Positions 1 to 64,000 are shown, counted from the first letter of the stretch. The stretch is 64,000 nt of DNA from Patescibacteria group bacterium (GCA_041650335.1 JBAZLK010000003.1:57765-121764); one strand, 5' to 3'. Made by a program: numbers and translations. The notes: generated from the sequence alone by a model not told the origin.

Positions 1-27
1 CTGTCCGACCGGCAGTCGGCTAGAAGG

Positions 28-321
28 CTATGTCTGTTTGTCAGATTCCTTCCGCTGGGTCGCAATTTTCCGTCTGGCGTACACCGGATAGAAATACATG
101 ATCAGGCCAGTCAACGCCATGAGTGTGAGGATGCCGCCGAACCATGGGCTTAAACGGTTGTGGATATAGCGCAGCAGGCCGAGATCAATAAATGACAGCG
201 ACCGTGAAACAAAATCTGGATATTTCAATAATAACCCTGAGGTTGCCATGACAAGAATAAGGGCCGATATTAACAAGACGAGCAATCGATGAATTTTTTT
301 TGAGAGCAGAAAGTTATTCAT
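28..321 (-). CDS. small integral membrane protein, hypothetical. Alternative upstream start at 465 would overlap the cytochrome b5 gene.
   Basis: Reading frame 28..465. The Met at 321 precedes two predicted TM helices (LLVLLISALILVMATSGLL; FGGILTLMALTGLIMYF). No match to a known family. Confidence 0.4.
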   Translation of the reverse strand: MNNFLLSKKIHRLLVLLISALILVMATSGLLLKYPDFVSRSLSFIDLGLLRYIHNRLSPWFGGILTLMALTGLIMYFYPVYARRKIATQRKESDKQT

Positions 322-337
322 GGCCGTTATAAAAAAA

Positions 338-769
338 TTATTTGGCGTTTGAATTGTTCGTATCAAGAGCGCCGATATGATATGACGCCAGATCGACGTA
401 CGCCACCGATGAGTGAGCGCCTCGGCCAGCCTTTGTTTGGAAAGCTTGCGTCGCATCTTGTCCACAATGCGGGATGATGATGTCGCCGCCGCCCGGATGG
501 AGCTTGAGATACCTCGTCACGTCATAGACAATGCCCTGGATAACGATCCAGCAGTCAGCCGGAGTAGCATGCTGAGCGACAACACCGGCGGTAAGGACTG
601 TTTGGTTCGTATTTGAATTGCTTCCGGTTATCGGACCGGCCGCCTTGTGTCGATAATACCCCGCGACATAATAGCCGATGATTACCCCGAAGATGAGGAT
701 TAGTATCACCCCGATGACAATTTCTTTTCTCATATGACGCAGTATATCATGCCGAATATTCTGAAACAA
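338..769 (-). CDS. cytochrome b5-like heme-binding domain protein, N-terminally membrane anchored
   Basis: N-terminal TM helix (IVIGVILILIFGVIIGYYVAGYY). The C-terminal segment ATPADCWIVIQGIVYDVTRYLKLHPGGGDIIIPHCGQDATQAFQ matches the cyt b5 fold signature (HPGG, His ligands). Start may be the Met at 733. Confidence 0.55.
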   Translation of the reverse strand: MFQNIRHDILRHMRKEIVIGVILILIFGVIIGYYVAGYYRHKAAGPITGSNSNTNQTVLTAGVVAQHATPADCWIVIQGIVYDVTRYLKLHPGGGDIIIPHCGQDATQAFQTKAGRGAHSSVAYVDLASYHIGALDTNNSNAK

Positions 770-818
770 TTCAATAACAAAACCGGATTATTTATCCGGC
801 TTTGTCGTCTGCAGGTAT

Positions 819-3080: not shown

Positions 3081-3194
3081 TGAGAAATTCTCCTTTTGAG
3101 AATCCTCGTGACCCTCAGACTCCAGACTTTCATTAGAATGAAATGAAAAAGTCTGTTGGTCTGCGGGCCAAAGAGGACGCTGTAGTTAATTATG

Positions 3195-3791: not shown

Positions 3792-3840
3792 ATGTTTTTT
3801 GTCTTATCGAAAAAAGCCCGACTCAACGGGTATGCAATAA

Positions 3841-4110
3841 TTAATGCTTGAGTTTTAACTTCTTGATGAGGTTTTGATAGCTCTCGGCGTTCTCTTTTTC
3901 GAGATAGCGGAGCAGGCGGCGGCGTTGGCCGACCTTGCGGAGCAGGCCGCGCCGGGAAGAAAAATCCTTTTTATGATCGCGCAGGTGATCGGTGAGCTGC
4001 TGGATTTCCTCGGTCAAAATGGCGATCTGTACCTCGGACGAACCGGTATCGGTTTCGTGCGTTTTAAACTTTTTGATGAGCTCTTCTTTTTTTTGCTTGT
4101 CGATAGCCAT
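3841..4110 (-). CDS. rpsO: 30S ribosomal protein S15
   Basis: 89 aa; [49 protein letters not shown] is the canonical S15 sequence. Position upstream of pnp is the expected gene order. Confidence 0.9.
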
Positions 4111-5701: not shown

Positions 5702-6025
5702 CTAGATGCTCGTCACCAGATCGAATACGACCGGGCGATCCCGCCTCTGGCCAGGATTGTAGGCGCACATGTAGGCGCACCCCTCCAGAAAAACGTTGCC
5801 CGGCATCCACTGGCCGCGCTCGGAGTTATACTGCACGGTGGCGCGGCCCTTGAACTCGCGGTCCATCCGGACGCACGTGAAATCGATCGAGTGCATCGCC
5901 GTCCGGTCCGTAAGATCGACCGCCTGGGTAGTCACGCTTTCGGCCCTGCCAATGCTTCTGGACAGCGCCGCCTGAGCCATTCGCGTGACAAGCTCTTTCA
6001 CTACCGTCGCATCGCTCTTCGGCAT
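5702..6025 (-). CDS. hypothetical protein in a GC-rich patch
   Basis: 107-aa frame with protein-like composition. A GGGAGG Shine-Dalgarno lies 8 nt upstream of the ATG. No family match. Confidence 0.4.
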   Translation of the reverse strand: MPKSDATVVKELVTRMAQAALSRSIGRAESVTTQAVDLTDRTAMHSIDFTCVRMDREFKGRATVQYNSERGQWMPGNVFLEGCAYMCAYNPGQRRDRPVVFDLVTSI

Positions 6026-15477: not shown

Positions 15478-16734
15478 ATGCGCCGAATCAGCCCGTACCT
15501 TTTCATCCTCACCTGTCTGTTCGCGGCCCAGCCGGCCCGATCGCAGGAACCACTTAGTCTCCGCTTCATGAGCCAGCACACCCAGCTGGACCGTTACCTC
15601 GGAACGACCGGGGTCGGCCAGATCACCGGACAGGACATCAAACTGTTCGTGGACAATCCACGGCGGACGCGGCTGCTCGCCCTGGAGATCGAGAACTTCG
15701 ACAACGACGTTCCCGACTCGATCGGCCTGGAGCTGCCCGAGAAACGCCGCAACATCGGCGTCTGCCTGCCGCTCACCAACCACTTCGCGTTGCGCTACGT
15801 CCACAACTCGTACGAGTACAACATCTCCAACGACTTCACCACCGAGGGCTACTATCCGTGTTACGATGACACGACCAACAAGATTATGCTGGGCTTCGAG
15901 GAAGACAACGAGCGTTCCTTCCTCGCCTACGGGTATGGACGGCGGCAGCTCGGTGCCTGGCAGCTTTACCTGGCTGCTTCGCAGGAGCGCTATGACAAAG
16001 GGATGCGACAGAAGGAGCGGGTGGTCAACGAGCGTTTGGGTCTCGCGGCCTGCAACAACCTCGCCGGCCTGCAGCTCTTTGCCTCCAGCACGTACAACTT
16101 CGAAACGGAACAGCCAACCTGGTCGGCTGGACTGGCCCGACCTGTCCCGATGGGTTCGCGCCAGCCCGGACTGTACGTTTCCGGCCGACTCAAACCTGAG
16201 GCGACATTCGTCCTGGCGATGTTCACGCTCGGTACGAAGGCCTTCTCCCAAGAGATGACAACCGACCTGCTTGCCTCTTCGGAAGTATCAACCATGCATA
16301 CCAGTCGCATCATTCGCGGCCGGGACTTCGATGTCGCGGGCGGTAGCTCATCGGGTTATAAGGTCCAGGAAATGAGCGATGTCGCCGGCTACCTCACCCT
16401 GGTGGACACCGAGGTGACCAAGACTGCCTCAGTCCGGGAGCTCGAAGCGGCTCTCTACGGTACGTTGTCCTGGTGCATCGGCCGACTGACCAACCCATTC
16501 ATCGGTTTCGCCCACTCGGAATCGCGCGACCTGGTCTACGACCCGGTCCTCCATCGCATGGATGACCCAGGCCAGAGCTGGAACACTGTCCTGCTCGGCG
16601 GAAAGATCGATGTGCTGTCGCGACCCGATCCGCGCGGAGCTAGGAAAACCGGCTACCTGAAACTGGAGTCAAAGCTCCGTTTCAGCCGGCACGGTTTTGA
16701 CGGCCTGTGCCTCGAAGGCACCTTCTGGCTCTAG
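15478..16734 (+). CDS. secreted hypothetical protein in a GC-rich patch
   Basis: Signal peptide MRRISPYLFILTCLFAAQPARSQ after a GGAGG RBS. About 400 aa with no recognisable catalytic motif; aromatic-rich, possibly a beta-rich fold. Confidence 0.5.
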   Translation: MRRISPYLFILTCLFAAQPARSQEPLSLRFMSQHTQLDRYLGTTGVGQITGQDIKLFVDNPRRTRLLALEIENFDNDVPDSIGLELPEKRRNIGVCLPLTNHFALRYVHNSYEYNISNDFTTEGYYPCYDDTTNKIMLGFEEDNERSFLAYGYGRRQLGAWQLYLAASQERYDKGMRQKERVVNERLGLAACNNLAGLQLFASSTYNFETEQPTWSAGLARPVPMGSRQPGLYVSGRLKPEATFVLAMFTLGTKAFSQEMTTDLLASSEVSTMHTSRIIRGRDFDVAGGSSSGYKVQEMSDVAGYLTLVDTEVTKTASVRELEAALYGTLSWCIGRLTNPFIGFAHSESRDLVYDPVLHRMDDPGQSWNTVLLGGKIDVLSRPDPRGARKTGYLKLESKLRFSRHGFDGLCLEGTFWL

Positions 16735-23395: not shown

Positions 23396-24247
23396 ATGCT
23401 AGACTGTCAGGAGTGCGACCGGGCCGAAAGGCAAAAGGAGGAACGGCGAGACTATCAGCCAATTCTGTATCTGGTTGCCGGATTACTTCTTTTCTCCGCC
23501 GGGGTCATCGGCCTTACGTATGGATTCGTGTACGGCTGGAAATCACTGGATGACCAAGTACACGCCTTGGTGGGTTCTATCGGCACCGTCGGTCTCATCC
23601 TAGCGCTCTGGAGATTCTTGGTCCCATATGTCAGGCGAACTGTCAAGGGTTGTTACCTCTACGACTACGTCAATCACCGGAGCGAAGGACATACCCACCT
23701 GACGCAGCCCCAGTACGGCTTTTCGGATGACTATGAGTCCAATGCCAAGGGGCCGATTTTCCGGATCGCTCTCGGCGGTTGGTTCAAGAGCAGCGCCGTG
23801 CTGCATCAGCCATCCGGCCACTGGTGGCACCATCTGAAGCGGGCTGATGGCATTCAGTTCCAATCAGGAAACAGTTACTCGCTGAGCGACCCGGAAGGAG
23901 GCCGCCTGCCACCGATGACTCTGGCCGAGCTGCGCTGGGTGGTGGAATGTTTCACCGGACTGCGCACGCTGATTGAATTCGCCCGAGTGGTTGAAAGACA
24001 GCGGGATCATCTGGGCGGAACGGCTTGCGCAGTTGTCCGCTATGCGAAGGACTCTAAAGACCGGGAGAAGTCGCCGACTGCCCGGAGCATGCGACTGATG
24101 CTCGAACAGGGAGTTCGGACCGTTCCTGCTCATCGTTACGGCGGCTCGGTCGACTCCTCAGGCCTGCTGGCTAGCTGGGAGGCTCTCGCGACCCAGATGC
24201 TCCCTCCAGACCCGGCCAACACCAGCGAGCGAGCCACCGGCAGCTGA
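23396..24247 (+). CDS. hypothetical membrane protein (2 TM) in a GC-rich patch
   Basis: Cys-containing N-terminus (MLDCQECDRAE), two TM helices and a ~200-aa soluble domain. No family match. Confidence 0.45.
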   Translation: MLDCQECDRAERQKEERRDYQPILYLVAGLLLFSAGVIGLTYGFVYGWKSLDDQVHALVGSIGTVGLILALWRFLVPYVRRTVKGCYLYDYVNHRSEGHTHLTQPQYGFSDDYESNAKGPIFRIALGGWFKSSAVLHQPSGHWWHHLKRADGIQFQSGNSYSLSDPEGGRLPPMTLAELRWVVECFTGLRTLIEFARVVERQRDHLGGTACAVVRYAKDSKDREKSPTARSMRLMLEQGVRTVPAHRYGGSVDSSGLLASWEALATQMLPPDPANTSERATGS

Positions 24248-25309: not shown

Positions 25310-25579
25310 ATGACAGCGGCTACCCAGTCCCGGAGAAAGATCGGCGAGGTGGTTGCACATCAGATGATGCGGAACGGGCTAAGGGTCTTCGTCGTCACAG
25401 GCGCAGAAGGATCTCTGCATGTTGGGGGTGAGATCGCGCTTGGAAAGGCTCCGCTCATCACCGTCAATGGCCTGGAACGCGATGGTCAGCCGATCGAGTC
25501 GGTCGGCGGCGGAGCGAAGGTGAGCTTTCACCTGTCCGATAATCGCATCATCCCAAACGGCACGCCGGTCTTCGCCTAG
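25310..25579 (+). CDS. small hypothetical protein
   Basis: GGAGGGTGAGG RBS 2-3 nt before the ATG. An intrinsic terminator (gagacctgcttcggtgggtctc + T5) follows the stop. 89 aa, GC-rich. Confidence 0.45.
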   Translation: MTAATQSRRKIGEVVAHQMMRNGLRVFVVTGAEGSLHVGGEIALGKAPLITVNGLERDGQPIESVGGGAKVSFHLSDNRIIPNGTPVFA

Positions 25580-25658: not shown

Positions 25659-26372
25659 TTAACCACCCCCGGCGCCTTCCTCGTCGGAAAGCGGTCGAAC
25701 GATCCCGGTAGCCGGAGCAGTGTGAAGATGCCGTATCTGCGGGCTGGTGAAGAAACCGGCAAACGGTTCATTCCGGTCATTGTAGTAGCGCCGGCTTTGT
25801 TCTCCGAGCTCGGCAATCCAAGGCTGGATCCGCGGCTGCCAATCAGCCAATTCGTGACGGAATACCGCCGCCATCGGCAAAAGAATATCCAGTGTTTCGT
25901 GCGCCTTCCGTTCCCGGCTTTCCGGCGGCATGACGTCGCAGGTGCGGAAGTAGTGCAGTCGGTCGCCCAATTTCAGCGGGATTACGCGCGGATTACGCTG
26001 GGCGCAGCGATAGAGCTTCCCATAGTACAGCACGGCTTGCGCAATCCAGCCAAGCTGGCTGAACTCCTTGTCGCAGGTAACGGCCTCAACCAGATCCGCT
26101 ACTTCGGGACCGAACAAGTCGCAGATCACGGCGATGCAGACAGCCGTGTCCTCATCGAGGTCGTGGAGTATGGCCGCGCACACCTCAACCCAGGTGCAAC
26201 CGATCGCCAGCATATAACCGGCGACGGCATAGGCGTGGCTGACCGCCGGCGCTCCCGAGCGGCGGAACTTGCCAGCCATGGCCTGTTCGGCAATGTCGCT
26301 TGCCTGATAGACTCGCTCTGGCTGGACGATGCCGGAACGCGCCAGTTGAAGCCGAAATTCGTCCTTTGTCAT
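25659..26372 (-). CDS. HD-domain hydrolase of the RelA/SpoT type (small alarmone hydrolase-like)
   Basis: HAYAVAGYML ... ILHDLDEDTAV ... LFGPEVADLVEAVT parallels the RelA/SpoT hydrolase motifs (HP...LHDVIEDT...FG..VA.LVEGVT). Confidence 0.65.
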   Translation of the reverse strand: MTKDEFRLQLARSGIVQPERVYQASDIAEQAMAGKFRRSGAPAVSHAYAVAGYMLAIGCTWVEVCAAILHDLDEDTAVCIAVICDLFGPEVADLVEAVTCDKEFSQLGWIAQAVLYYGKLYRCAQRNPRVIPLKLGDRLHYFRTCDVMPPESRERKAHETLDILLPMAAVFRHELADWQPRIQPWIAELGEQSRRYYNDRNEPFAGFFTSPQIRHLHTAPATGIVRPLSDEEGAGGG

Positions 26373-29419: not shown

Positions 29420-32400
29420 CTACTTTCTCGGCAGCGAGTGAATGCCACCCTGGCCCTGCCGTTCATGGAGATCCCAGGCGTAGCTGGCGAGCTGCGCCGG
29501 ATCGATCGGGTCGCCATCAACGTACAAGAACAGGATATTGGCATCATCAACGTGGTGCAGCTGCGCTTGGGCGTACTTGGAGGGCATGCAGCCCTGGGGA
29601 CAGACGGCCACACCGCCATGACGCAGGTCCACGATGGTCAGGGCCGCCTCTCCTTCAGGCGCGCCTTCAAAGTACGGTTTGACCGCTTCCATTACCGGCT
29701 CGATCCTGGTGTGCGTGTTCCGGCCAATCGCCCGAGCGACGACCCGGTCCAGGCGCCAGAATACCCACCACTGCAGGAGGGCCTTCAGGCTGACCGCGAC
29801 GCGATTGAACTGATCGCGCTTATGGCCGTGCCCTTGGGTCCAGGTGAGATACTGGATCCATTCGTGGATCGTTGAGCGCCGAACCCTGACATTGTGGTCA
29901 GCCAGTATTCTGACTACATTGCCATTGGCATGGGGATCTCTGACCACGTAGATCTCGCCCGAGAGGTGTCCCTGGACGACATTGGCCGCCCGCTCAGGAT
30001 CAATCCAGATCGACTGAAACTCACGGACGACTCGGTCCAAGAAACCGGGCAGCCCCCAGTCGCACAGCCAATCTCGGATCTGACCCGGCAAGCGCTGGGC
30101 TACCGGACGAACCTTCAACTGCTCTACCGCTCGTGCCATCGCCCACTGATACACTCGATCGACGTCAGCCGGGTTCCGGGCGATCGGCAGATAGTAGCAC
30201 CAGAGCTCATCCAGCAGATCAGCCAGCATGACTGCGGCGCAAGCCTTGAGCCGCAGGTGCTTTCCCACGCCGTCATAGGCATTGTCCGATGAAGTAGCAA
30301 ACAGGTGAACTGCCTGCGCTGGATCCAGCTGGGTCAGAATGATCCCGTGCTGCGTCCGGTAGGAACCGAAGCGGCAGGGACCAGTCGTCGCCGGCATGAA
30401 CCAGTAGAAGTGTTTGATCTCGGGATATCGCGGCAGAACCTCCCGAACCATGTGCTCGAGAACGCCGGTCACGTACATGTACGGGACGCACTCTTTGCCG
30501 GTCGCGTACCGGCCGCGACCCAGACGGAGTATCCGGTCATCGGTCGGCGGCGCCGCGATTACCCTGATGCCGATTGACGAATAGACCGCGGTCAGCAAGG
30601 GCTCAAGGTTGCCAAACTGGCACAGAACCAGAGCTGATTCGGGGTCATTCGGATCAAACGGCTTCCCCGTGTCGTGTTCCTGCAGCAAGGTGAGGTCCGT
30701 GACCAGCGCGCGCTGGTCGCCCTCTCTCAAGTGATGTCGCATGGCGTAGACGCTTGACTGAATCCGCGTCGTAAAGCCGCCCATGCCCGTATGCCCATCG
30801 GTCTCGATGATGCAGTAGGGCACGTCGGCGATGTACCGCAGCCAGTGCTCCAGAAACGCGTCCGGCCCGCAGGAGTAGCAGGTGATCATCAGGGGGTAAA
30901 CGCCGGGTCGCCGGTGCAGATCAACCACCGCCCTGAGAATCCTCTGCCCCTCGCCCCAGTACACTAGGTCGAGAAAAGGCGTGGTCGGATCCACCGGGTA
31001 GCAGTCAACCGGAATGGCCACGACGCCGCTACCCTGGATGATCTCTGGGATCTGCCCATTGATCGCCGGGGAGAGCGTGGCATAGAGCCGGCCCAGCACC
31101 ACGACGGCCGGGACGCGATGTTCTGCGGCATAATCCAGAGCGCGCTGACCGATCGCCAGACAATGCTCTTGGAAATCCCGCTGCACCCCAACGGCCAAGT
31201 AAAAAGCCCGAAGGCTTTCTGCTTTGGTGCGGCCCAGCTCCCGTCCCATCGAGACAAACACTCGTCGCACTTCCTCGCTCGTCTGCCAATTCAGGCCGAA
31301 CTTGATCACCGGCCTCAGGATCTTCATCCCGGAACCCGATGAATCGTTCGGAATCACTCCGTTGATGGCGGCAGCCACCAGCTCGGGCGTTCCCTGAACC
31401 AGCGGGCACGTACTGCCGATGTCGCAGCCGCTCTCCCGAGGCAGTAGGACCACCTTGGGAAAGAAGATCAGATCAACGCCCAGTTCAACCGCCTCGTCAG
31501 CCAGACCATGGGCAACCTTGACCGGCGCACACATGTCTTTGCCTAAACTGATTTCCTCGCCCCGCTTGAGGGTTTTGGTGGTCGGTTCAAGCACTTTGAC
31601 ATTCACGCCGAGGTTGGCCAAGAACGAACTGAATAGGGGCATGAACCGGACGTTGGCCAGAGTCAGCGGAACCGCCACGGTTGGTTGCCCGGCTCGATCC
31701 ACCGGTAAGGCCCGAATCAAAGCATCATGAAGTTTGCGCCGTTCGTCAAACGGCTTTGGCGCGTCAGTCGGCAGTCTGTTTCTGGTGTTTCCTTCGTGCA
31801 GCGGGCACATACCGCCTGACTTAACCGTCACCGTCTGATCGCCGATTGACACCTTCGTCCGCTCAATCCTGCACTTGGCACCGCATTCGCGGTTGCCGCA
31901 TACAAAGCTTGAGCGTTCGACAACCTCTGCCGCCAGAAATCGCCCGAGATCAAACGTCTGATCCAGAACAATCTGTTCCTGACGGCATTGCTCCAGCGTC
32001 AACAAGGCGATACCGATAGCCCCGGTAGCGCCTGGCCGAGGTGGTACGATTACCTTTCGACCAGTTACCGCCGCGATCGCCATAGGCAAGGCGATGTTAT
32101 TCACCGGCATGCCGAGCGCGAAGATGACCTCTTCCAGTCCCAGCTGTCCGACCAGCCGGTTTAACCAGTTGTAGGCAATGAAGTAGAAGCGACCGGCGGC
32201 GATGTCTTGGACGGTAAAGCCCTCACCCAACGCCCGGTCAGCAATGTCCCCAGAGAAGACGACACAGGTCTGACCCATGTCGATCGGCTCCCGCGAGTCG
32301 AGCGCCCACCGGCCAAATTCCTGAATCGTCGTATTCATCCGTCTCGCGTCGTACTCAACTTCAGATCCGGTTCCGGCAGAACAGGCTCGGTTCATGTCTG

Positions 32401-33939: not shown

Positions 33940-35010
33940 TCACACGTCGATGTGGCGACGGAAGTACCGTTCCTCCACGGGCTGGAAGAGGCGGGTTGCC
34001 TCTGCCAGATCAACGCGATGCATCCATTGCAGCGTGCGGATCACGTTGGTCGGCGTCACATTGACGACCTGAGGAGTAAACCAGCCGAGATGGTAGAGAT
34101 GACCGAGAGGCGTGTCGAAGACCTTGACCTGGCCGCGAACGAACACAGCCAGTGCAAAGACCCCGCCGAGCAGCCCGTGTTCGCACCCCCACTGATCGAT
34201 CGGCGCCATACACTTCTCGTCAGTGATCGAGGCCAGCTGATACGCTTCCATAGCCTCGAGAATCTGAGCTTTGGTCAGAGGCTTCTCTTCCCGACCGATC
34301 GCCCAGAGATGAGGGCTGTGCATACCTTGAACCGGCAGCTTCATGGCATCGGTGACGATCCGAAGCCCCGGCAGCAGCCTGCCCACGTCACCGCCGTGGT
34401 GCGTCCCATACTCATCATCGTCGAAGTCGCTGAACGATGGACCAGTGCACACTTTCGGGTTGCCGCGGTCCGTGTCCCGCCGGTTGAAGCCAGCCACGAC
34501 CAGTACGAGATCCGCGCCTGCCTTCTGGAGAATGCGGATGGCCGTCACCGCGCTGTGGTCGTTACAGGAAGCGTTCTGAAGCCAGACCTCAGCGAGCGAC
34601 TGGTCGTCATCCACACCGAGACAGGTGATCTTGCCGAAGCCGTGTTCCGCGCCCTGTGCGATGAACCGTCTCGTGCCATCATCATACTTCCGGTACAGCT
34701 CCTCCTGGAGGGCTAGAGCATTGTCCGTGCAGTCGATGATGACGGTCGAGCCACCGATCGCGTCTTCCACCCCCATGGGCTTGAACCTCTGGCTCTCGAA
34801 GGCAGGAATCATGTCCGGCCAGGTGGCCAGCCGGACACCGCCCGCGACGAGCTCGTGCAGGACCGAACGATGCGTGATCTTGCCCTTGTCGCCGGCTCTC
34901 TTCACGAGAAAGACGTTCTCGAGACCGAATCCCTCACGGAACTCCGCCAGGATTCTCGCGGTTCTCCTGCCGATCGTGCTTGACCCAACGACTGTTACGC
35001 TGCCCATCAT
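33940..35010 (-). CDS. NAD(P)-binding dehydrogenase with GAPDH/semialdehyde-dehydrogenase-like catalytic Cys
   Basis: N-terminal Rossmann VTVVGSSTIGRRTARIL. LQNASCNDHSAV resembles the GAPDH active site (NASCTTN). GAGGAGG RBS. Confidence 0.5.
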   Translation of the reverse strand: MMGSVTVVGSSTIGRRTARILAEFREGFGLENVFLVKRAGDKGKITHRSVLHELVAGGVRLATWPDMIPAFESQRFKPMGVEDAIGGSTVIIDCTDNALALQEELYRKYDDGTRRFIAQGAEHGFGKITCLGVDDDQSLAEVWLQNASCNDHSAVTAIRILQKAGADLVLVVAGFNRRDTDRGNPKVCTGPSFSDFDDDEYGTHHGGDVGRLLPGLRIVTDAMKLPVQGMHSPHLWAIGREEKPLTKAQILEAMEAYQLASITDEKCMAPIDQWGCEHGLLGGVFALAVFVRGQVKVFDTPLGHLYHLGWFTPQVVNVTPTNVIRTLQWMHRVDLAEATRLFQPVEERYFRRHIDV

Positions 35011-40065: not shown

Positions 40066-40378
40066 CATGTGCCCACATTCGGGCGAGAGTGGCGCAGCGG
40101 GGATCTCGCCCACCGTTCTGAGGGTTTCGGCTCTCCGCGGTGGATCGAGATCCCCCTCCCACTTACATTGCACCTTCTTCTCGCAAGGTATAGATAATGG
40201 GGTGAGGCCTCCCCTACACGTTTCTACGTGTACCGGTGGCCGAACGCATGCAACACTGACACCAGGAAGGTCATCCGAACCATGGAAGGTTCTCACCCCA
40301 GCTACCCCCGCCGCGCGCCATCACGTTTCCCCTTGTTGTACCCCGACACGTGATGGTCGCGCGGTTTTTCATTTACTT
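40066..40378 (+). ncRNA. candidate structured ncRNA 1 (unassigned family), ~310 nt, ending in a strong intrinsic terminator
   Basis: GC-rich, no credible ORF on either strand. Long helices such as ggggatctcgcccaccg...cggtggatcgagatcccc, acacgtttctacgtgt and gaaccatggaaggttc. 3' hairpin ccgcgcgccatcacg/cgtgatggtcgcgcgg + T5 (40311..40370). Confidence 0.35.
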
Positions 40379-40389: not shown

Positions 40390-40672
40390 AAAAGAAATGA
40401 TACGATTCGCCCGTCCACGGCAACCAAAACACGGAGGTGCGTCGTGACCAGACGGAACAACCGTCCCCCAAGATGCAGCGCCGGGCATCCACCAACAACG
40501 ATGGAAGCCGAGGCCTCATCGAAACACAAGACGGTTTACCGCTGCCCCGGATGCGGACAAACCACAACGGTCCACACCGAAAAGGGCAGGGTCGTCCAAC
40601 CCGCCTACTGATCATTCTCCCAGTCCGAAAGATTGTGCCCCGTCTCGCCCATGCGCCGAGACGGTTTTTGTA
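40390..40672 (+). ncRNA. candidate structured ncRNA 2 (unassigned family), ~280 nt, with its own promoter-like element and terminator
   Basis: TTGACA at 40377..40382 right after the first terminator, with a weak -10 (TACGAT). GC-rich untranslatable body. Terminator ccgtctcg-cccatgcgc-cgagacgg + T5 at 40640..40672. Confidence 0.3.
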
Positions 40673-52561: not shown

Positions 52562-52798
52562 ATGGAAATCAAGATCCTCGACGGCGCCAACCTCGATATC
52601 GACCTCGTGTCCCAGGACAAAACGTCATGGAAGCAAATGTCGTGCCCCTGGAACGAAGCTGACGGCACCAACACTCACAAATGCGCCGTTAAAAATGTTT
52701 CGATCTGCGAGTATTTTTGCGGTATTCAATATCTCGATAATGTGTTGTGCTGCTATCCAAACAAGAACGAATCAGTGGATAATAAGCAGAAAAAGTGA
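52562..52798 (+). CDS. small Cys-rich protein (78 aa, 7 Cys), AT-rich island
   Basis: MSCPWNEADGTNTHKCAVKNVSICEYFCGIQYLDNVLCCYP. No family recognised. Confidence 0.4.
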   Translation: MEIKILDGANLDIDLVSQDKTSWKQMSCPWNEADGTNTHKCAVKNVSICEYFCGIQYLDNVLCCYPNKNESVDNKQKK

Positions 52799-52880: not shown

Positions 52881-53261
52881 ATGAATAATTCGGTTGGCAT
52901 ACTTTTTGAAAACGGCGAGGGGAAAATACTCTTTTTGCTGAGAGACGATAAGCCGACTATTCCCCATCCCAACCAATGGGATGTTTTGGGCGGCGTGGTG
53001 GAAGACGGTGAAACAGCCGAGCAAGCCATTGTCAGGGAAATGCACGAGGAGCTTGAACTTGATCTGAAGGATTTCAAGGTATTTAAAGTATTTCATTGGC
53101 CGGAAAAGATTGAAACTATTTTTTATAAGAAACTGGATCTGGATATTAATAAAATCAATCTTCATGAGGGGCAAAAGATAAAATATTTTTCCAAAGAAGA
53201 ATTGCTTCAAATGAATCTGGCTTTTCACGACAATGAAATAGTCAGACAGTTTTTCTTGTAA
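52881..53261 (+). CDS. NUDIX hydrolase
   Basis: NUDIX box GGVVEDGETAEQAIVREMHEELEL (Gx5Ex7REUxEExGU). Confidence 0.8.
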   Translation: MNNSVGILFENGEGKILFLLRDDKPTIPHPNQWDVLGGVVEDGETAEQAIVREMHEELELDLKDFKVFKVFHWPEKIETIFYKKLDLDINKINLHEGQKIKYFSKEELLQMNLAFHDNEIVRQFFL

Positions 53262-53270
53262 ATCCTTTTA

Positions 53271-53921
53271 ATGAATAGCCTGCCCAAAATAACAGCACCC
53301 GGCTTGGCCGTCGACATCGACGAGACGCTTTCCTGGACCATCGGCTACTGGGTGGAAAGGATGCAGGAGAAATTTGGCAATCCCGAAAATCTCACGGTCA
53401 AGGAAATAATCGAGAAGTACCGCTACACCCAGAACGTGCCCTATTGGCAGTCAGCCGAGGCCAAACAGTGGATGCACGACAAAATCAACTCCGACGATTT
53501 GCAAAAAGAACTTCCCTTAATCGAGGGTAGCAACACGTATCTAGAAAAAATCAATTCCATCATTCCGATCGCGGCGTATATAACCGTTCGACCGGAATCT
53601 GTGATTAGCGGCACCCAAGCCTGGCTCAACAAACACGGTTTCCCAAAAGCGCCTATCATCTGCAAACCGCTGGACGTAGACCATGGGGATGGTAATAGAT
53701 GGAAAGCCGATATCCTGCAAAAACTATATCCGGATATCCTGGGCATGATCGACGACAACGCACTACTTCTTGATTTCCTCGACGCCAAATACCCGGGCGT
53801 TATTTTTCTCTACGACCACCACACAATTGATAGCGCTCTTAACGTCATCGCATGCAAAAACTGGGTGGAGGTGTATGGGGAGGTGAGAAGATATTTCAGT
53901 AAAGTAAATATGGCTATTTGA
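53271..53921 (+). CDS. HAD-superfamily hydrolase, 5'(3')-deoxyribonucleotidase-like
   Basis: Motif I VDIDETL (DxDxT) and motif IV GMIDDN. Overall length and spacing resemble NT5C-type nucleotidases. Confidence 0.55.
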   Translation: MNSLPKITAPGLAVDIDETLSWTIGYWVERMQEKFGNPENLTVKEIIEKYRYTQNVPYWQSAEAKQWMHDKINSDDLQKELPLIEGSNTYLEKINSIIPIAAYITVRPESVISGTQAWLNKHGFPKAPIICKPLDVDHGDGNRWKADILQKLYPDILGMIDDNALLLDFLDAKYPGVIFLYDHHTIDSALNVIACKNWVEVYGEVRRYFSKVNMAI

Positions 53922-54029: not shown

Positions 54030-54872
54030 ATGTCAACAGTACTAAATGATAGTTTGTACAAGAGATTTGGCCTTGAGATCGATTTGGAAGAAGTCCAATC
54101 GGGTTTTTGCATGTATACTAAAAATGTTTTACTAGATTATTTATCTCCAATTATAAGTCCTGAAATATATAACAATACGAGTATATTAAAAGAAATACAA
54201 ACGAATACTCTAACCGAGTCTTGCCGTCAGCTTTTTAAGGATCCAAGAGCATATTATAGTTATGATAATTTCATTAAAAGAATTTTCGATATAAATTGTA
54301 TATCTTTTGAAAAATATCTAATAAATTTACAAATATTCATTAACGTGCTGTTTAATTATAAACAAATTAGACCCGAACTTAATCAAGTTTTAGAAAATTT
54401 ATCGAATTATCTCATTGATTATCCAATATTAAACATCGCCCTTAAAATATATAAAAGTAAACCCGCCCAAATATTACCCTCCATATCAAAAACCATTGAT
54501 TTAAACATTGAAAATACTTTAAATATTTTAGAGACCATAAAATATAAACCAGTGCTGATAAATTATGAAGAGGGTCTAAAAGAATTTCTATTAGCAAAAA
54601 CTCAATCGCAATTGAAAGATGTTGTCGAAGACATGTTAACTGCATGTGATGAGTTAGCAAAAATAGCCTTAAAGGATAAAAATAAAGGATTCAAACACTT
54701 TTTTAAAAACAGCGACAATTACTTTAAAAATCGAAGTACTAAAGAACTTTATAGAAATCTAAAGGATTGGATGGATAGTATAAAACATGGTTCATTGAAA
54801 GATTTTGATCGGATGGATATTGAAACAATTATTAATGCCGTATCTTCATTTATAAGATTAATGGCAAAATAG
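54030..54872 (+). CDS. hypothetical protein with extreme AT bias (roughly 28% GC)
   Basis: 280-aa Ile/Asn/Lys/Leu-rich frame, uninterrupted, no motif. Confidence 0.5.
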   Translation: MSTVLNDSLYKRFGLEIDLEEVQSGFCMYTKNVLLDYLSPIISPEIYNNTSILKEIQTNTLTESCRQLFKDPRAYYSYDNFIKRIFDINCISFEKYLINLQIFINVLFNYKQIRPELNQVLENLSNYLIDYPILNIALKIYKSKPAQILPSISKTIDLNIENTLNILETIKYKPVLINYEEGLKEFLLAKTQSQLKDVVEDMLTACDELAKIALKDKNKGFKHFFKNSDNYFKNRSTKELYRNLKDWMDSIKHGSLKDFDRMDIETIINAVSSFIRLMAK

Positions 54873-54954: not shown

Positions 54955-55560
54955 ATGAAACAAACAATTTGCCTATTCGGCGACAGCATCACCTGGGGCG
55001 CCTGGGATCGGGAACGGGGCGGCTGGGCTGCCCGGCTGAGAAGCTATTTGGAAACGAATAACCGCGATGTTGCCGTGTACAACTGCGGCGTATCCGGCGA
55101 TACGGTTGCGGATTTGCTTCAACGATTCGATGTCGAGTGCAAAGCCAGGGGCCCAAACATCATCGTCTTGTCGATCGGGATAAATGACTCTCGATATTAC
55201 ACGACAAAAGACAAACCAGAAACAACCCCCGAGCAATTTCAAAAGAACTTTGACGAACTTCTTAAGAAGGCAAAAAAGTATGCTGATGCAATCATCTGTT
55301 TGGGGCTCACTAAAGTGGATGAAAAGATAACAACGCCCTGCTCTTGGAAGCCAGATAAGTACTACGATGATGAAAATATCAGAAAGTATGACGCGATAAT
55401 GCAAAAGTCTTGTGACCACGCCGGTGTACTTTTTCACAGCCTGTATGACTTACTAGACTTTTCCGATCTTGTCGATGGTTTACACCCCAGCTCCAAAGGG
55501 CATGAAAAAATGTTTCTAGCGATAAAAGATTTTTTTCAGAAACAGGGGTATATATCATAG
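54955..55560 (+). CDS. SGNH/GDSL family hydrolase
   Basis: Block I ICLFGDSITWG (GDS nucleophile), block III GINDS, block V DGLHPSSKGH (DxxH). Confidence 0.8.
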   Translation: MKQTICLFGDSITWGAWDRERGGWAARLRSYLETNNRDVAVYNCGVSGDTVADLLQRFDVECKARGPNIIVLSIGINDSRYYTTKDKPETTPEQFQKNFDELLKKAKKYADAIICLGLTKVDEKITTPCSWKPDKYYDDENIRKYDAIMQKSCDHAGVLFHSLYDLLDFSDLVDGLHPSSKGHEKMFLAIKDFFQKQGYIS

Positions 55561-56011: not shown

Positions 56012-56806
56012 CTAAACGATGCTCACGCCGGCCTGGTTGAGCTCGAGGACGATGCTCGCCTCGTCGTCCAGGATCTGGCCATCGCACCAGTCGAGGCGGT
56101 CCTCGTCACAGCCGGTGCACCGGGCGTAGAGCCGGTCGGGATTCCCGCCGGGATCGCGCCGCGTCACTTCCCAGACGCGGCCGTGCGCATCCCTGATGCC
56201 GTTGCCCAGCGCCAGATCACGCCAGGCCGTCTGCGTGATCGGGGTTCTGAATACGCCGAGCTTGACCGCAAGTTGGCGAAGAGCGTCGTTTCCGGTAGGC
56301 GCGCCGATGATCGCCATGCAGAAATCCGGGCGGGGATCGGGCACGGCGTTCCAGTGATTGGGGAACGGATTGGCGAGACGAACCTCTGTCTGCCTTCCCC
56401 GCACGTCAACGACGGCACTGAACACAGCGGTTGGGGCGCCGCCGTCCTCGCCGGTACGATCACGAAAGTCGCTGCCGCTTCCGAAGTACCGACTAACAGC
56501 GTCCGGAAACTGGTTGAAGCTCATTCGCGCCGCCTCAGCTGACGCATCGGGTTCCGTTGCGGCCGTGCCGGCATCAGTCGCCGTCACCGTGAGGCTCACC
56601 TCGAGCCGGGTGACCTCGCCGTCATCGGTGTAGTGGGGTTCCGCTGAGACACCGCTCTGGACCTGGAGGGTCCGGCGGTCCATCGACACCTGGCCGACTC
56701 GGATCTGCCCGGCCGGAGCATCCGGACCAGGATCGTAAACGCGCCAGATCTCGTACCCGTTCTCGAAACTGAATAGATCCCCGGGCTTGAGCGTGCTTAA
56801 GAGCAT
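56012..56806 (-). CDS. hypothetical protein in a GC-rich patch
   Basis: AGGAGG RBS 6 nt before the ATG at 56806 (MLLSTLKPGDLF...). 265 aa, no motif. Confidence 0.45.
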   Translation of the reverse strand: MLLSTLKPGDLFSFENGYEIWRVYDPGPDAPAGQIRVGQVSMDRRTLQVQSGVSAEPHYTDDGEVTRLEVSLTVTATDAGTAATEPDASAEAARMSFNQFPDAVSRYFGSGSDFRDRTGEDGGAPTAVFSAVVDVRGRQTEVRLANPFPNHWNAVPDPRPDFCMAIIGAPTGNDALRQLAVKLGVFRTPITQTAWRDLALGNGIRDAHGRVWEVTRRDPGGNPDRLYARCTGCDEDRLDWCDGQILDDEASIVLELNQAGVSIV

Positions 56807-60192: not shown

Positions 60193-60421
60193 GTGTGTAT
60201 TGTGAATACTTAGTACTCTTAGTATAGCAATGGATGGGATTCCGCGCTAGCAAGCGAATTTTTTCTCATGTTTCAAAGGCCTAAGCACAATCGGAGCGGG
60301 ACTTGACGTTCGGTCCGTATATGATACATTATTCAGTCGAGCCAATATGACTATTTGCGGTTGTGCTGGCTTCGGACGACGGGGTTACGGTCGGACACAC
60401 GGATAGAAGGAGGGTTTAGTC

Positions 60422-61036
60422 ATGGAGCTGAAGATTCCGCCAACTGCCTACGGCGTGACCTTGTTTGTGCGCCGGGGCGAGGCGCACAAGGGAGTGCCGG
60501 CCATAAGCCGCACCTTGACCCAAGAGGGCGCTGATCACTGCATCAGGGTCAGCTCATACTGGGAAGAGGTGATCGGCTCACTGAGCGCTCGGTTCGACAG
60601 GCCTCGGTATTTCACCGGTCCGATGCCCGCCATGGTGCTCACGTGCTACTTCATCTTCGGGCCGTCGGCGATTACCGTCCACCCGCACCTCGCCTCCACG
60701 GTCAGCGGCAAGACCGTTCAGGAAGGTCGCTGGTTCGAGGCACAGCGGGCGGCCGGCAAGACCCGAGTCCAGATCATCCGAGCGCTCTGGGAAGATCCGA
60801 CGATCTGGGAGGGGCAACCGTTCGAGCATCAGAGCCGGCAGGTGCACCAATTCCTCGTGGAAGAAGAGGCTGGGCTCTTCCGCATCGCCGTCAGCGACGA
60901 GCCGTCGATCACCCTCGCGCTCCTCGGCACGGTCGACGACGACATGCTCGGCCTGGGTCCCTGCGAAGGACTTCTGATCTTCCGTGATCGGGAGGGCACC
61001 ATCGTTGGCACCCAGAAGCTTGTTCCCTCAGCCTAG
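60422..61036 (+). CDS. hypothetical protein in a GC-rich patch
   Basis: 204-aa frame followed by a hairpin + T6 terminator (gtcagtccagggtttcctcggactgac tttttt). Confidence 0.45.
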   Translation: MELKIPPTAYGVTLFVRRGEAHKGVPAISRTLTQEGADHCIRVSSYWEEVIGSLSARFDRPRYFTGPMPAMVLTCYFIFGPSAITVHPHLASTVSGKTVQEGRWFEAQRAAGKTRVQIIRALWEDPTIWEGQPFEHQSRQVHQFLVEEEAGLFRIAVSDEPSITLALLGTVDDDMLGLGPCEGLLIFRDREGTIVGTQKLVPSA

Positions 61037-61201
61037 CGCCGCCCTTCGGCGTTGCGCGTCAGTCCAGGGTTTCCTCGGACTGACTTTTTTATTGTCCCCG
61101 CAATATAAAATTGCAGAAACAATAAAAAACGGGTAACTCTGTGAAAAGTTACCCGGCAATGCCGAAAGTTGGTGGTCGAGATTGCCCGACAGAAGGTGCG
61201 C

Positions 61202-62056
61202 TCATTCTTCCCGGCGAAAGACCGTGTCCGGAAAGGTGAGCTGGGTTGATTCGGGGTTGATCAGCGCCTGCGTGCACCCCATACCCTGCAGTAAACGGAA
61301 GCTCTCCCGCAAGCCCGCCAGGGCTGCAGCGAGGACAGCACCGTTGTTCACCGCCAAAGAAATCGGCTTTTCCACACATGGCGGTGGCGCACTCTCGCGT
61401 GGAGGCGTTGCGGCGTCTTCTCCTGGATCCGGATCGTCCCCCGAGCCTCCTTCGAGCCAAGCGCCAATTTCCTCGAGTAGATCGGCCGCCCGGACATCCT
61501 TCGGATCGAGACGATACTGGATCGCCCCGTCTGAAACGCGTACGGCACAGTGAAGATAGCGACCATCGCCGCTGACTTCCAGCCGGTAGGGTTGTCCCGC
61601 CTGGAGCTGGAGCAGATGATTGTGCTCTCGATCGTACGTAGCAACGCGCGGGTTTCCCTCGAAATAGTCCTCGAGCCCCGCCAGCGTGACCGGCTGACGC
61701 GTCCCGCCACTGTCCGGACCGGGTGGCGGCTTTTCGTCCGCTTCGGACGCAGGATCCCGCGGCTGAAATCCCGGAAAGGCCTGCCGCAATTCTGTAACCA
61801 TGTCATGTACATTGGCGCCGGGTGCCGGGCGGATGTCGATCGGCTGAAGCCAACAGCCCTCGTAGTACGTTACGATAACGCGATCATCCTTGACGTTTGC
61901 AGCTGGCAAGCGCGCCGGCCCGACGTACGGCTGACGCGGTCTCGGCGTAACTGACTGAACGCGGCCTTTCAGCACCACCTTAATCCAGGCGATGAGCTGG
62001 ACTAGGTGCGCTTGAAAGAGCGCCTCCGGTTCAAAAGCCCGCTCCGTTGAACTCAT
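61202..62056 (-). CDS. hypothetical protein in a GC-rich patch
   Basis: AGGAGG RBS 6 nt upstream of ATG (MSSTERAFEPE...). Convergent with the preceding gene, separated by a bidirectional terminator pair. Confidence 0.45.
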   Translation of the reverse strand: MSSTERAFEPEALFQAHLVQLIAWIKVVLKGRVQSVTPRPRQPYVGPARLPAANVKDDRVIVTYYEGCWLQPIDIRPAPGANVHDMVTELRQAFPGFQPRDPASEADEKPPPGPDSGGTRQPVTLAGLEDYFEGNPRVATYDREHNHLLQLQAGQPYRLEVSGDGRYLHCAVRVSDGAIQYRLDPKDVRAADLLEEIGAWLEGGSGDDPDPGEDAATPPRESAPPPCVEKPISLAVNNGAVLAAALAGLRESFRLLQGMGCTQALINPESTQLTFPDTVFRREE

Positions 62057-62278
62057 GGCTGCCTCCTTCTGGCCGCTTGGCCAGATTGCCTGAAACAAAA
62101 GCCGTGGCGTGCGCTCTGCAAATAACCGACCCCACCTTACCAATCGCACCCCCGGGTTGTCAAATAAAAATCGGATAGCCCTAATCAGTAATTGCCTTGA
62201 TGTGATCAATATTATCCCCCTGGACAAAAGTCCAAAAATGCGCTATAATTACTGCAGAAAGTAAAAATAAAAACACAA

Positions 62279-64000
62279 ATGATACTTCGCAAAACAACAA
62301 AGCGCGTGGGGGGCGTATTCGCTATTCTGGCTGTCCTCTGGCTCTGCCTGGCTTCGTACCAGGCCACGGCCAGCGCCCCGGATCGCATTAGCGCTGAAAC
62401 GATTCAGCAAAATACTTTGGGTGAACAAGCACGTTCTCCTTTTTTAATTGGCACGGAATATCAATCGCCAGACATCATGTTGTCAAAAGCCGCCACGGTT
62501 TTCGGCTTTACCTGGCACGGTACCGTCACCGCGACTTTTTCCGTTCAATATAAAAACGATACCACATGGTCGGATTGGAAAAAAGTGCCGGCGATGGAGG
62601 GGGTCGGAAAAAATGACCTTTCTGGCACTGATCTGCTTTTTGTCAGTCCCACCACAACCTTCCGCTACCGCTATACCGCCAGCGAACCGCTAACCAATGT
62701 TCAGGCGTTCGCGCTCCGTGTCGACTCCCGGACTGGCGTTGTTAGTTGGCTCCAGCGATTTCTCCAGTCATTCGTACCCGCCAGCCACGCAAATACACCG
62801 ATCATTCCGCGCGCTGACTGGGGCGCGAATGAAGAAATCAGCTTTTGGGAACCAGAATACGCCCAACCTGAGAAAATTATCGTCCATCATACCGCCGGCG
62901 CTGACGGCAGCGTCAATCCCGAAACCGTCATCCAGTCAATCCAATACTGGCACGCCGTGGCGCTGGGCTGGGGCGACATCGGCTATAATTATCTGATCGA
63001 CGCCAACGGAAATATTTACGAAGGGCGCAAGGGTGGCGACGGCGTGATCGGCGCCCACGCCTATCGTAATAGCGCTTGCAACGAACAGCGTTTCGGCGGC
63101 GACCACGTCGGCGTCGACTTTAATCGCGGCACGATCGGCATTTCGCTGCTCGGAAATTATCAGGACGACGAGCCGACTGCCGCCGCGCTTGATTCGTTGA
63201 GCCGACTGATCGCTGACAAGGCGCATCGCTATGGCATTTCACCGATCGGCTTCTCAAATTTCCAGGATCTCGTGCACGTGCCGAATGTCCTCGGTCATAA
63301 GGACGTTGACTGTACGCTCTGCCCCGGAACGAACGTTGAGGATCGGCTCGTTTCAATACGGACGCTCAGCCAGCATTACTACGACGAGCTCGGCACGCCG
63401 GAGGCGACTACCCGAGCGAGCTTTGTCGCCGCCAGCGATCGTGATTTCAATCTTCAAACCCAGGAGACAATAACCCTGTGGGCGGATTTTAAAAACACCG
63501 GCACGTCAACCTGGCACAGGAATGACACTGTTCCGCTCATGCTGGCAGTAAGTCACGCCGGCTCGCCCTTGGCAGATTCCAGCTGGTTGTCCGACACCGC
63601 CGTCGCAAAATTACACACCGTCAGCGTCGCGCCGGGCGAAACCGGACGTTTTGAATTCACCATCACCGCGCCAAACGACCATCTCGAGGTGACCGAAACC
63701 TTTCAACTCGTCCAGGATGGATTAGCAATCGTCAATACGGATTTTCAGCTTGTTGTCCACGTGACCGGGCTGGACTGGGCGGCCCGGCCGAAAACCCAGG
63801 CCGTCAACGCAGCCAGCTTTCTGGGCGCGCGGCTGCCGACCAGCCTGACGTTTACGAATGCCGGCACACAAACGTGGACGCGCGATAATACCTACCTCTA
63901 TATCTATGACCTCGGCGACGCCACCAGCCGCTATCGTGACCGCGATTGGTCGGAACCGGATGGCAAAATATTGCTCAAACAGACAAGCGTAAAGCCTGGC
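62279..64000 (+). CDS. N-acetylmuramoyl-L-alanine amidase (Amidase_2/PGRP domain) with C-terminal Ig-like repeats; 3' end beyond the window
   Basis: Hand-translated open frame from ATG 62279 to the window end. Absent from the supplied track because no stop lies within the window. Signal peptide, then IIVHHTAG...GWGDIGYNYLIDANGNIYEGRKGG...CPG (Amidase_2). Then repeats with NTGTSTWHRND / NAGTQTWTRDN like those of the SpoIID protein. Confidence 0.75.
   Translation, partial: MILRKTTKRVGGVFAILAVLWLCLASYQATASAPDRISAETIQQNTLGEQARSPFLIGTEYQSPDIMLSKAATVFGFTWHGTVTATFSVQYKNDTTWSDWKKVPAMEGVGKNDLSGTDLLFVSPTTTFRYRYTASEPLTNVQAFALRVDSRTGVVSWLQRFLQSFVPASHANTPIIPRADWGANEEISFWEPEYAQPEKIIVHHTAGADGSVNPETVIQSIQYWHAVALGWGDIGYNYLIDANGNIYEGRKGGDGVIGAHAYRNSACNEQRFGGDHVGVDFNRGTIGISLLGNYQDDEPTAAALDSLSRLIADKAHRYGISPIGFSNFQDLVHVPNVLGHKDVDCTLCPGTNVEDRLVSIRTLSQHYYDELGTPEATTRASFVAASDRDFNLQTQETITLWADFKNTGTSTWHRNDTVPLMLAVSHAGSPLADSSWLSDTAVAKLHTVSVAPGETGRFEFTITAPNDHLEVTETFQLVQDGLAIVNTDFQLVVHVTGLDWAARPKTQAVNAASFLGARLPTSLTFTNAGTQTWTRDNTYLYIYDLGDATSRYRDRDWSEPDGKILLKQTSVKPG

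Follow-up and report, generated by a model that had tools for sequence, protein, structure and literature searches.

The DNA examined here is a 64,000-nt stretch of a single contig from a Patescibacteria group bacterium (GCA_041650335.1, JBAZLK010000003.1:57765-121764), referred to below as the window, in which positions 1 to 64,000 are counted from its first letter. Its genes include those for PNPase, ribosomal protein S15, RuvB, QueA and QueH, pilin-like N_methyl proteins, VanW and SpoIID as well as a Wzx/GT4/Wzy polysaccharide cluster, a set that fits a member of the candidate phyla radiation (CPR). Exact protein matches locate the window at positions 92754-156753 of the 215,076-bp contig k141_1446856 in the European Nucleotide Archive (ENA; ERZ27247363), and NCBI lists these proteins (locus tags WC497_*) under Patescibacteria group bacterium. 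A first-pass annotation had described the window as a strong mosaic of GC-rich and AT-rich blocks with sharp boundaries and had suggested that it arose by repeated horizontal acquisition into a small genome or, alternatively, from a chimeric metagenome bin. Having compared the window with an independent assembly, a sister species and more distant relatives, we consider it likely that the patchwork reflects variation in composition from one gene to the next along a genuine Patescibacteria chromosome that has been assembled correctly, and that four separate causes contribute to it.

The GC content is 52.7% in the window as a whole, 51.7% outside the blocks singled out previously and 45.9% in unannotated DNA. 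Six of the eight blocks reported as GC-rich indeed stand out, at 59-61%, as does the AT-rich block at 52560-55560 (39.6%), whose most extreme gene (54030-54872), put near 28% GC by the first-pass annotation, has a measured value of 27.4%. The blocks at 5460-6170 (55.1%) and 40060-40700 (56.6%), by contrast, are weak, lying just 3-5 points above the background. Most block boundaries are as sharp as claimed, with GC jumps of 0.12-0.22 across ±300 bp that only 10% to 1% of positions in the window equal or surpass, whereas the edges at 5460, 23400 and 52560 are not; the sharp edges coincide with the starts and stops of genes adjoining AT-rich spacers. Similarly GC-rich stretches are also found at positions that had not been listed, namely at 18.5-21 kb (56-59%), 45-46.5 kb (57-60%), 11.5-12.5 kb and 4.5-6 kb. 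The standard deviation (SD) of GC among 500-bp segments is 0.057, or 0.048 without the AT-rich block, and thus beyond the sampling noise expected from a binomial model (0.022). It compares with 0.039 in an ordinary 50-kb region of Escherichia coli K-12 and with a median of 0.040 (95th percentile 0.074) across 34 loci used for comparison, each 15 kb or longer. The heterogeneity is therefore real and above average, but to call it strongly mosaic overstates a pattern that is not extreme. Tetranucleotide usage, once corrected for base composition, shows no correspondence with the GC blocks (correlation of atypicality with GC deviation, -0.08), its only outliers being the activase region described below, 14-19 kb and 2-6 kb, and a dinucleotide-signature test gives a clear flag only for block 15440-16740 and both genes of block 29400-35060.

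The expectation that the blocks carry orphan genes holds for six of their protein genes, which lack a Pfam family, but not for all of their content. In block 5460-6170, the sole coding-like frame is a 107-aa hypothetical open reading frame (ORF; 5702..6025, minus strand) with a GC content at third codon positions (GC3) of 0.81, which is contained in the public gene call and has a codon-model score of 0.22, a value also seen in known genes; all remaining ORFs of the block score at or below zero. Block 15440-16740 (60.2% GC) consists of a lineage-restricted, secreted-looking 418-aa orphan (15478..16734, plus strand; 60.5% GC, GC3 0.78) with no match in Pfam or PADLOC, for which AlphaFold2 returned an unusable model from a three-sequence alignment (pLDDT 27.3). 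A hypothetical membrane protein of 283 aa (23396..24247, plus strand; 59% GC) makes up block 23400-24250 (59.0%), and block 25300-26400 (59.9%) comprises the genes for an 89-aa hypothetical protein (25310..25579, plus strand; 60% GC) and an HD_4-domain protein (25659..26372, minus strand; 60.4% GC; Pfam HD_4, E = 1.7e-18). The largest block, 29400-35060 (59.0%), encodes a 1445-aa protein of the 'CoA enzyme activase' type with BcrAD/BadFG ATPase and DUF2229 domains identified by Pfam (29420..33757, minus strand; 59.5% GC; hereafter the activase) and an archaeal-type (type II) GAPDH-like protein (33940..35007, minus strand; 60.7% GC, GC3 0.75) whose PDB sequence matches are to archaeal GAPDHs. 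Further downstream, block 55600-56870 (60.3%) contains a 264-aa orphan (56012..56806, minus strand; 65% GC, GC3 0.77), and block 60400-62100 (61.0%) contains a 204-aa orphan (60422..61036, plus strand; 63.4% GC, GC3 0.80) together with a fast-evolving 284-aa orphan (61202..62056, minus strand; 61.6% GC). An all-against-all BLASTP comparison identified no paralogs among the GC-rich orphans. Several long ORFs (40031-40447, 40437-40757, 5666-6061, 5826-6164 and 25722-26564) were dropped because they scored poorly in the codon model, were interrupted by indels that break the frame or overlapped a gene with better support; in block 25300-26400, the real gene is that of the HD_4 protein rather than the plus-strand ORF overlapping it.

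To locate the extra GC, we used a background codon table that separates amino-acid content from codon choice, with a residual SD of 1.9 points. The proteins encoded by the nine genes of the six clearly GC-rich blocks contain more Gly, Arg, Ala, Pro, His and Cys and less Lys, Ile, Asn, Phe and Tyr, an effect worth +2.4 to +8.7 GC points, and this amino-acid content makes up ~70-95% of the GC excess in five of the nine and ~55-66% in three more. The codon residual stays within about one SD in the genes for the activase, the HD_4 protein and the 283-, 89- and 284-aa proteins; the excess is nearly all amino-acid-based in the 283-aa gene (+5.4 points; codon residual +1.2) and entirely so in the 284-aa gene (+8.7; codon residual +0.5). 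The residual exceeds two SD at 15478-16734 (+5.6), 60422-61036 (+5.4) and 56012-56806 (+4.3) and reaches about two SD in the GAPDH-like gene (33940-35058, +3.7), with synonymous sites accounting for the larger part of the GC excess in the 418-aa orphan. Both components are negative in the AT-rich orphan at 54030-54872 (-11.6 points from amino acids, -13.7 from codon choice, ~7 SD) and in the nearby NUDIX gene (-8.5 and -5.2 points). Codon usage, whose comparison between blocks and background had been proposed as a check, is thus atypical for four of the nine GC-rich genes, the AT-rich orphan and the NUDIX gene but not for the other five. The window thereby resembles systems in which gene GC is driven by protein composition, as captured by the contrast between Gly/Ala/Arg/Pro (GARP) and Phe/Tyr/Met/Ile/Asn/Lys (FYMINK) residues, in that most of the GC excess of five genes is amino-acid-based and in that composition failed to predict which genes are variable; it differs in that four genes show a synonymous-site excess (GC3 0.75-0.80) beyond their amino-acid content. 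Base composition is reportedly a weak indicator of horizontal gene transfer (HGT), a point attributed to Koski, Morton and Golding in 2001.

The history of these genes was assessed by comparison with a sister species (~85-92% nucleotide identity) that a different project had assembled with SPAdes and that is found on more than 20 contigs. We used loci L089 and L094, both located on one 918-kb SPAdes contig (NODE_11), and L005, part of a GenBank metagenome-assembled genome (MAG; CAYJKP010000002.1). The latter is titled 'uncultured Gammaproteobacteria bacterium', yet its RuvB is 99% identical to that of the window and the locus is collinear, so that the label is probably wrong. More distant comparisons involved L006 ('Patescibacteria STA_36', with an RuvB identity of 82%), L009 and L011. 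Eight of the nine GC-rich genes have an ortholog in the sister, the exception being a replaced GAPDH-like allele. Their median synonymous divergence (Ks) is 0.32, as opposed to 0.38 for background genes (p = 0.28), and their ratios of nonsynonymous to synonymous divergence (Ka/Ks) range from 0.13 to 0.39, with a predominance of third-position changes. They are thus genuine genes that predate the divergence of the two species. Their evolution is faster than that of the background (median Ka/Ks 0.24 vs 0.09, p = 5e-6). Among the individual genes, this applies to the 418-aa orphan (Ka/Ks 0.16, Ks 0.52), the 283-aa protein (75% identical, Ka/Ks 0.37), the 89-aa protein (89%, 0.33), the HD_4 protein (88%, 0.20), the 204-aa orphan (90%, 0.29), the 284-aa orphan (75%, 0.39) and the 264-aa orphan, whose sister copy is shorter (161 aa), lacking window positions 56256-56578, and shows a Ka/Ks of 0.17 over the shared part. 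The sister copy of the 418-aa orphan is located on a contig of up to 1.18 Mb, in keeping with a small genome. For the activase, the loci of the relatives include the N-terminal ~565-571 residues, over which identity is 94% with the sister and 60% with L006; in each of them the gene is syntenic and exceeds the GC of its surroundings by ~7 points, suggesting that it was inherited vertically.

The GC offsets of genes are also conserved beyond the sister, with correlations between window and relative of r = 0.92 for L006 (n = 12), 0.88 for L011 (n = 8) and 0.74 for L009 (n = 10). Within the L006 locus, which has 48.8% GC overall, the activase ortholog reaches 55.9% and the GAPDH-like homolog ~59-60% (GC3 0.73-0.74), and an AT-leaning gene (35187-35606) is even lower in GC than its counterpart in the window. 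Searches among 5.8 billion proteins identified only three sequences for the 418-aa orphan (100, 86 and 77% identity) and six for the 204-aa orphan, all from the same clade, in which the latter appears to be a long-time resident. The 77% homolog of the 418-aa orphan has 61.7% GC and a GC3 of 0.79, while a 67% homolog of the 204-aa orphan has 63.1% GC and a GC3 of 0.79 next to a neighbour of 50.5%, and a 40% homolog, which adjoins Wzy_C in L011, still has 60.4%. These three homologs thus retain 60-63% GC and a GC3 of 0.69-0.79 among ordinary neighbours. A skew that outlasts the saturation of synonymous sites is not that of a recent import yet to ameliorate; the framework of amelioration for laterally acquired DNA is said to go back to Lawrence and Ochman in 1997.

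Recent gene flux between the window and the sister does occur, but it is poorly predicted by composition, and presence or absence of a segment in the sister is independent of the block classes proposed initially (Fisher p = 0.67). Segments found only in the window comprise 12658-13911 (plus strand), with a pair of pilin-like (N_methyl) paralogs whose GC is unremarkable; 18257-21587 (plus strand), a 3.3-kb segment of ~56% GC and typical dinucleotide signature that encodes an NqrF-like reductase, ApbE and a 323-aa protein; 52798-53298, with the NUDIX gene; 53903-54955, with the AT-rich orphan; and 56256-56578, which forms part of the 264-aa orphan gene. Segments found only in the sister comprise a 1.8-kb GC3-rich two-gene block, a prolyl-tRNA synthetase (ProRS) gene, an inositol-phosphatase gene and ~650 bp of further sequence. 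The 1.8-kb block (L089 795-2587, falling between window positions 8513 and 8538) consists of two hypothetical genes with 60-61% GC and a GC3 of 0.78-0.84. Finally, the segment 33930-35003, corresponding to the GAPDH-like locus, is replaced. The GAPDH-like protein of the window is only 33% identical to the sister copy, whereas the two share their first 10 residues and the flanking DNA is ~90% identical, so that the breakpoint lies ~10 codons after the start of the gene. Between L005 and L006, on the other hand, the copies show 53% identity, as orthologs would. Searching the same 5.8 billion proteins with the window copy produced a single match, from the same clade, and no further homolog, and all three versions (window, sister and L006) are GC-rich. 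This is the arrangement of an in-place allelic (xenologous) replacement relative to the sister.

The AT-rich block at 52560-55560 lies downstream of the Wzx/GT4/Wzy cluster and starts with the gene for a 78-aa cysteine-rich protein (52562..52798, plus strand; 45.6% GC), which is 96% identical in L094 (Ka/Ks 0.01). It is followed by the NUDIX hydrolase gene (52881..53261, plus strand; 38.6% GC; Pfam NUDIX, E = 1e-16), whose match to the candidate family PDC-S07 is the only one that PADLOC gave for the orphans and the genes of the AT-rich block. In the alignment, this gene forms a clean ~470-bp insertion in the spacer between the 78-aa gene and the gene for an NT5C-type 5'-nucleotidase (53271..53921, plus strand; 48% GC; Pfam; 85% identical in the sister), and the corresponding sister site is empty. 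The NT5C gene and a GDSL lipase/acylhydrolase gene (54955..55560, plus strand; 45.7% GC; Pfam; 92% identical in the sister) constitute the conserved left and right flanks of a variable slot, being 84-89% identical at the DNA level between window and sister while the cargo between them is unrelated. In the window, the slot contains a 280-aa all-helical orphan (54030..54872, plus strand; 27.4% GC, GC3 0.23) from a rare family, represented by 48 cluster representatives among 1.84 billion proteins, all of whose members are FYMINK-rich. The family profile detects no Pfam or PDB relative, the protein matches no PADLOC model, and its single-sequence AlphaFold2 model was unusable (pLDDT 41.7). In the sister, the same slot (L094 2077-4367) contains a DpdB/DndB-like (DGQHR-type) gene, identified by a PADLOC DpdB match (E = 5e-18) and an additional DndB match, followed by two small membrane proteins, at 31-34% GC. 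In L011, the homolog of the 204-aa orphan follows the Wzy gene almost directly, with one small ORF in between, a comparison by which 52.5-60.4 kb would be accessory at the family level. The AT-rich cargo is the one part of the patchwork that appears to behave like recent horizontal cargo. The exchange of one AT-rich cargo for another between conserved NT5C and GDSL flanks is reminiscent of turnover at defence-island hot spots, at which low-GC accessory genes replace one another between conserved neighbours, and it is tempting to speculate, from position, that the slot has a role in defence, although the 280-aa cargo of the window lacks a PADLOC match. We additionally observed that the public gene call places an antisense 101-aa ORF (52860-53165, minus strand) over the NUDIX gene, probably a mis-call in AT-rich DNA, and that a 31-nt direct repeat (52458-52488 and 52814-52844; 81% identical, 13 nt exact) has one copy where the Wzy gene ends (3') and the other where the NUDIX insertion begins on its left side, as either a recombination footprint or a chance occurrence.

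Block 40060-40700 is not an orphan protein gene but contains a candidate structured RNA and a small ORF. It lies in the 980-bp gap between the VanW and NIF3 genes, where we detected six promoter-like sites (0.7 expected for 39900-41050), four of them on the plus strand, and three plus-strand terminators, two by scan and a third by reading the sequence. The first half of the block corresponds to a candidate ~300-nt structured RNA, here called U1 (40066..40372, plus strand), with a promoter at 40031-40059, its own terminator and a folding z-score of -6.65. Indels of 1-2 nt rule out a long ORF across it. The window and L005 differ in ~27 columns of U1 by hand count, but only five varied nucleotides fall into the 89 predicted pairs, all of which stay intact; substitutions thus avoid the stems (binomial p = 3e-5), with the structure being derived from the same two sequences. 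The second unit, U2, is a zinc-ribbon-like ORF of 55 aa (40444..40611, plus strand), preceded by a promoter (40377-40406) and a GGAGG ribosome-binding site and followed by a terminator at ~40640-40668. Its frame and C..GH..CPxCG motif are conserved in L005, and it shows a weak match to the Pfam family HVO_2753_ZBP (E = 0.0013). Both U1 and U2 are absent from public gene calls. Adjacent to the block, upstream of NIF3-ruvB-queH-queA, lies a candidate 122-nt hairpin RNA (40719-40840, plus strand) with a promoter-like site at 40685-40712, a terminator at ~40849-40880 and a folding z-score of -8.7. It is near-identical in the sister and has hardly changed in L006, in which its conservation exceeds that of the coding sequence next to it; among the three sequences compared, no compensatory changes are visible. 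An nhmmer search of all fetched loci recovered the hairpin only in L005 and L006, and an exact-match search for its conserved core in viral contigs gave no match. Rfam, applied to the whole window at the gathering score, reported two tRNAs only, and permissive scans of 39900-41050 and 5400-6400 identified no family for U1 or the hairpin, apart from one meaningless match in 39900-41050.

How, then, did the patchwork arise? The proposal that the blocks derive from different organisms and were joined by mis-assembly would account for the compositional jumps, which are also the feature that the window shares with chimeric metagenome contigs and bins, and it could draw on the fact that the Logan contigs of the same sequencing run are fragmented, such as a 1437-bp contig around the integrase. 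However, the window sits on one contig rather than in a bin, and its joins are kept in independent assemblies and related genomes. The Logan contigs of run SRR8542065, produced with a different assembler, match the window with 100% or 99.98% identity in every stretch compared (1-3444, 5925-7361, 13414-19142 and 44030-56314) and thus recover the same sequence across most of the block edges compared; a 37-kb Logan contig is expected, judging by its size, to extend back to ~19122. The 918-kb sister contig is collinear with window positions 7720-64000 (~56 kb) save for gene-scale indels, and the L005 MAG has the same gene order, so that the block edges between 7.7 and 64 kb are reproduced in both. 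Despite its divergence, L006 has its genes in the same order all the way from the activase gene to that for Wzx, a span that includes the largest GC-rich block, and GC jumps are located at the ends of genes, not within them. On these sequence comparisons, mis-assembly of the window is effectively excluded, and a chimeric origin, as raised by the first-pass annotation, is hardly credible.

An alternative in which each anomalous block represents a separate, fairly recent horizontal acquisition, with donors of different GC contributing to a small genome, finds precedent in the HGT and genomic islands documented in Patescibacteria (PMC12455944). Like such islands, the window shows sharp, gene-bounded GC shifts (59-61% in GC-rich blocks and 27% in the AT-rich gene, against 52% overall), many hypothetical genes and an AT-rich insertion of foreign codon usage in a variable slot beside a polysaccharide cluster. 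The claim of repeated acquisition is borne out for the NUDIX gene (52881-53261) and the 280-aa orphan, which are absent from the sister, and for the replaced GAPDH-like allele; the sister-specific GC3-rich block and the codon-level GC excess of ~2-3 SD in four GC-rich genes also speak in its favour. It fails as an account of the other GC-rich genes as recent arrivals, since their sister orthologs diverged at background-like Ks and distant relatives show the same GC offsets: among the block genes tested, lack of a sister counterpart at the site is confined to the three loci just named, L006 has both the activase and the GAPDH-like locus in synteny and with high GC, and homologs of the 204- and 418-aa orphans retain their skew in other lineages. 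Thus, most GC-rich blocks differ from islands in having been kept, with skew intact and no amelioration, in sister and distant relatives. In addition, no donor-like homologs of the 418-aa, 204-aa or GAPDH-like proteins exist among the 5.8 billion proteins searched, two real insertions are of ordinary composition, and no integrase, tRNA or direct-repeat borders, mobility genes or long bracketing repeats were found at the blocks. The sole recombinase (6345-7301, with an XerC/D-like domain set) is located upstream of the 5' end of tRNA-Arg (7327-7401), and no link to block 5460-6170 was found. We therefore regard this reading as improbable for the patchwork as a whole and as largely refuted for recent events. 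Still less likely, in our estimation, is an effect of expression, by which translational selection for C/G-ending codons would raise GC3 in highly expressed genes and the blocks would mark strongly expressed genes. The GAPDH-like gene does belong to a class that is usually highly expressed, and the RuvB and Wzy genes also have a raised GC3 (0.71-0.73). Nevertheless, PNPase and S15 both have a GC3 of 0.66, a value that for S15 fails to support simple expression-linked codon bias as the cause of high GC3, and the GC3-rich genes are clade-restricted and faster-evolving (Ka/Ks 0.16-0.29), the opposite of usual highly expressed genes.

The gene-by-gene heterogeneity that we favour would have four components. 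The vertically inherited genes for the activase-like, HD_4, 283-, 89- and 284-aa proteins are GC-rich mainly through protein composition, their products being rich in Gly, Ala, Arg and Pro and poor in Lys, Ile, Asn, Phe and Tyr. A second, clade-restricted class with a GC3 of ~0.8 (the 107-, 418-, 264- and 204-aa orphans and the GAPDH-like gene) carries extra GC at synonymous sites; these genes may form a flexible, fast-evolving set whose members are nonetheless old residents, older than the sister split and, for two of them, much deeper. Their skew appears to be maintained rather than decaying, possibly by gene-specific constraint, by repeated exchange of alleles within a GC-rich pool, or by both, the latter process having been seen once, at the GAPDH-like locus. 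The very AT-rich DNA would be recent cargo in the variable NT5C-GDSL slot, which in the sister is occupied by a different, equally AT-rich cassette, apparently of the defence type. Block 40060-40700, finally, would consist of small units delimited by promoters and terminators.

Several points weigh against this explanation. The assemblies deposited in ENA and in Logan may rest on the same reads. The comparisons with distant relatives span only 32-62 kb of the window, with 8-12 genes each, and the relatives' sequences start at window position 7720, so that block 5460-6170, located in 1-7720, was judged on codon statistics alone. The sister-only GC3-rich block indicates that some members of the ~0.8-GC3 class come and go on the time scale of species, which leans towards HGT, and the atypical dinucleotide signatures of the activase and the 418-aa orphan are compatible with an ancient foreign origin. 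Horizontal transfer thus survives as an explanation only for the AT-rich slot and the allele swap, and in a weak, ancient sense it may extend to the ~0.8-GC3 class.

Patchiness of this kind is a known, ordinary texture of genomes, and HGT and islands in Patescibacteria have been described before (PMC12455944), so that current understanding remains unchanged. What the analysis provides is a trustworthy contig with one variable cargo slot, one allelic replacement and a few unannotated candidate units for small RNAs or small proteins. It also calls for caution, because anyone relying on GC alone would take enzymes of vertical descent and long-standing genes of the clade for imports and would miss two real insertions, whereas comparison with relatives sorts the blocks correctly. 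A more far-reaching possibility, which we put forward only tentatively and consider rather doubtful as a whole, is that U1 and the hairpin, the latter conserved across genera, are new RNAs, that the 27% GC orphan belongs to an uncharacterised, rare AT-rich family in a defence-type slot, and that the ~0.8-GC3 genes are kept GC-rich by recurrent allele exchange in a clade-wide pool. If so, part of the mosaic would consist of unannotated functional elements rather than foreign DNA, and the ~0.8-GC3 genes would represent a flexible, non-ameliorating class in streamlined CPR genomes.

A few minor observations concern other parts of the window. The Logan contig that carries the XerC/D-like recombinase is 1437 bp long (5925-7361) and has its two ends within the 107-aa ORF and within tRNA-Arg, respectively, which may reflect strain variation or a branch in the assembly graph. 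The two pilin-like (N_methyl) paralogs (12730-13323 and 13366-13950) are arranged in tandem and 52% identical to each other, and both are absent from the sister. No ProRS gene is present anywhere in the 64-kb window, and it is presumably located elsewhere in the genome; in the sister, it lies between a methyltransferase gene and tRNA-His (L089 5151-6569), at a position where the window has only 260 bp (10754-11014).

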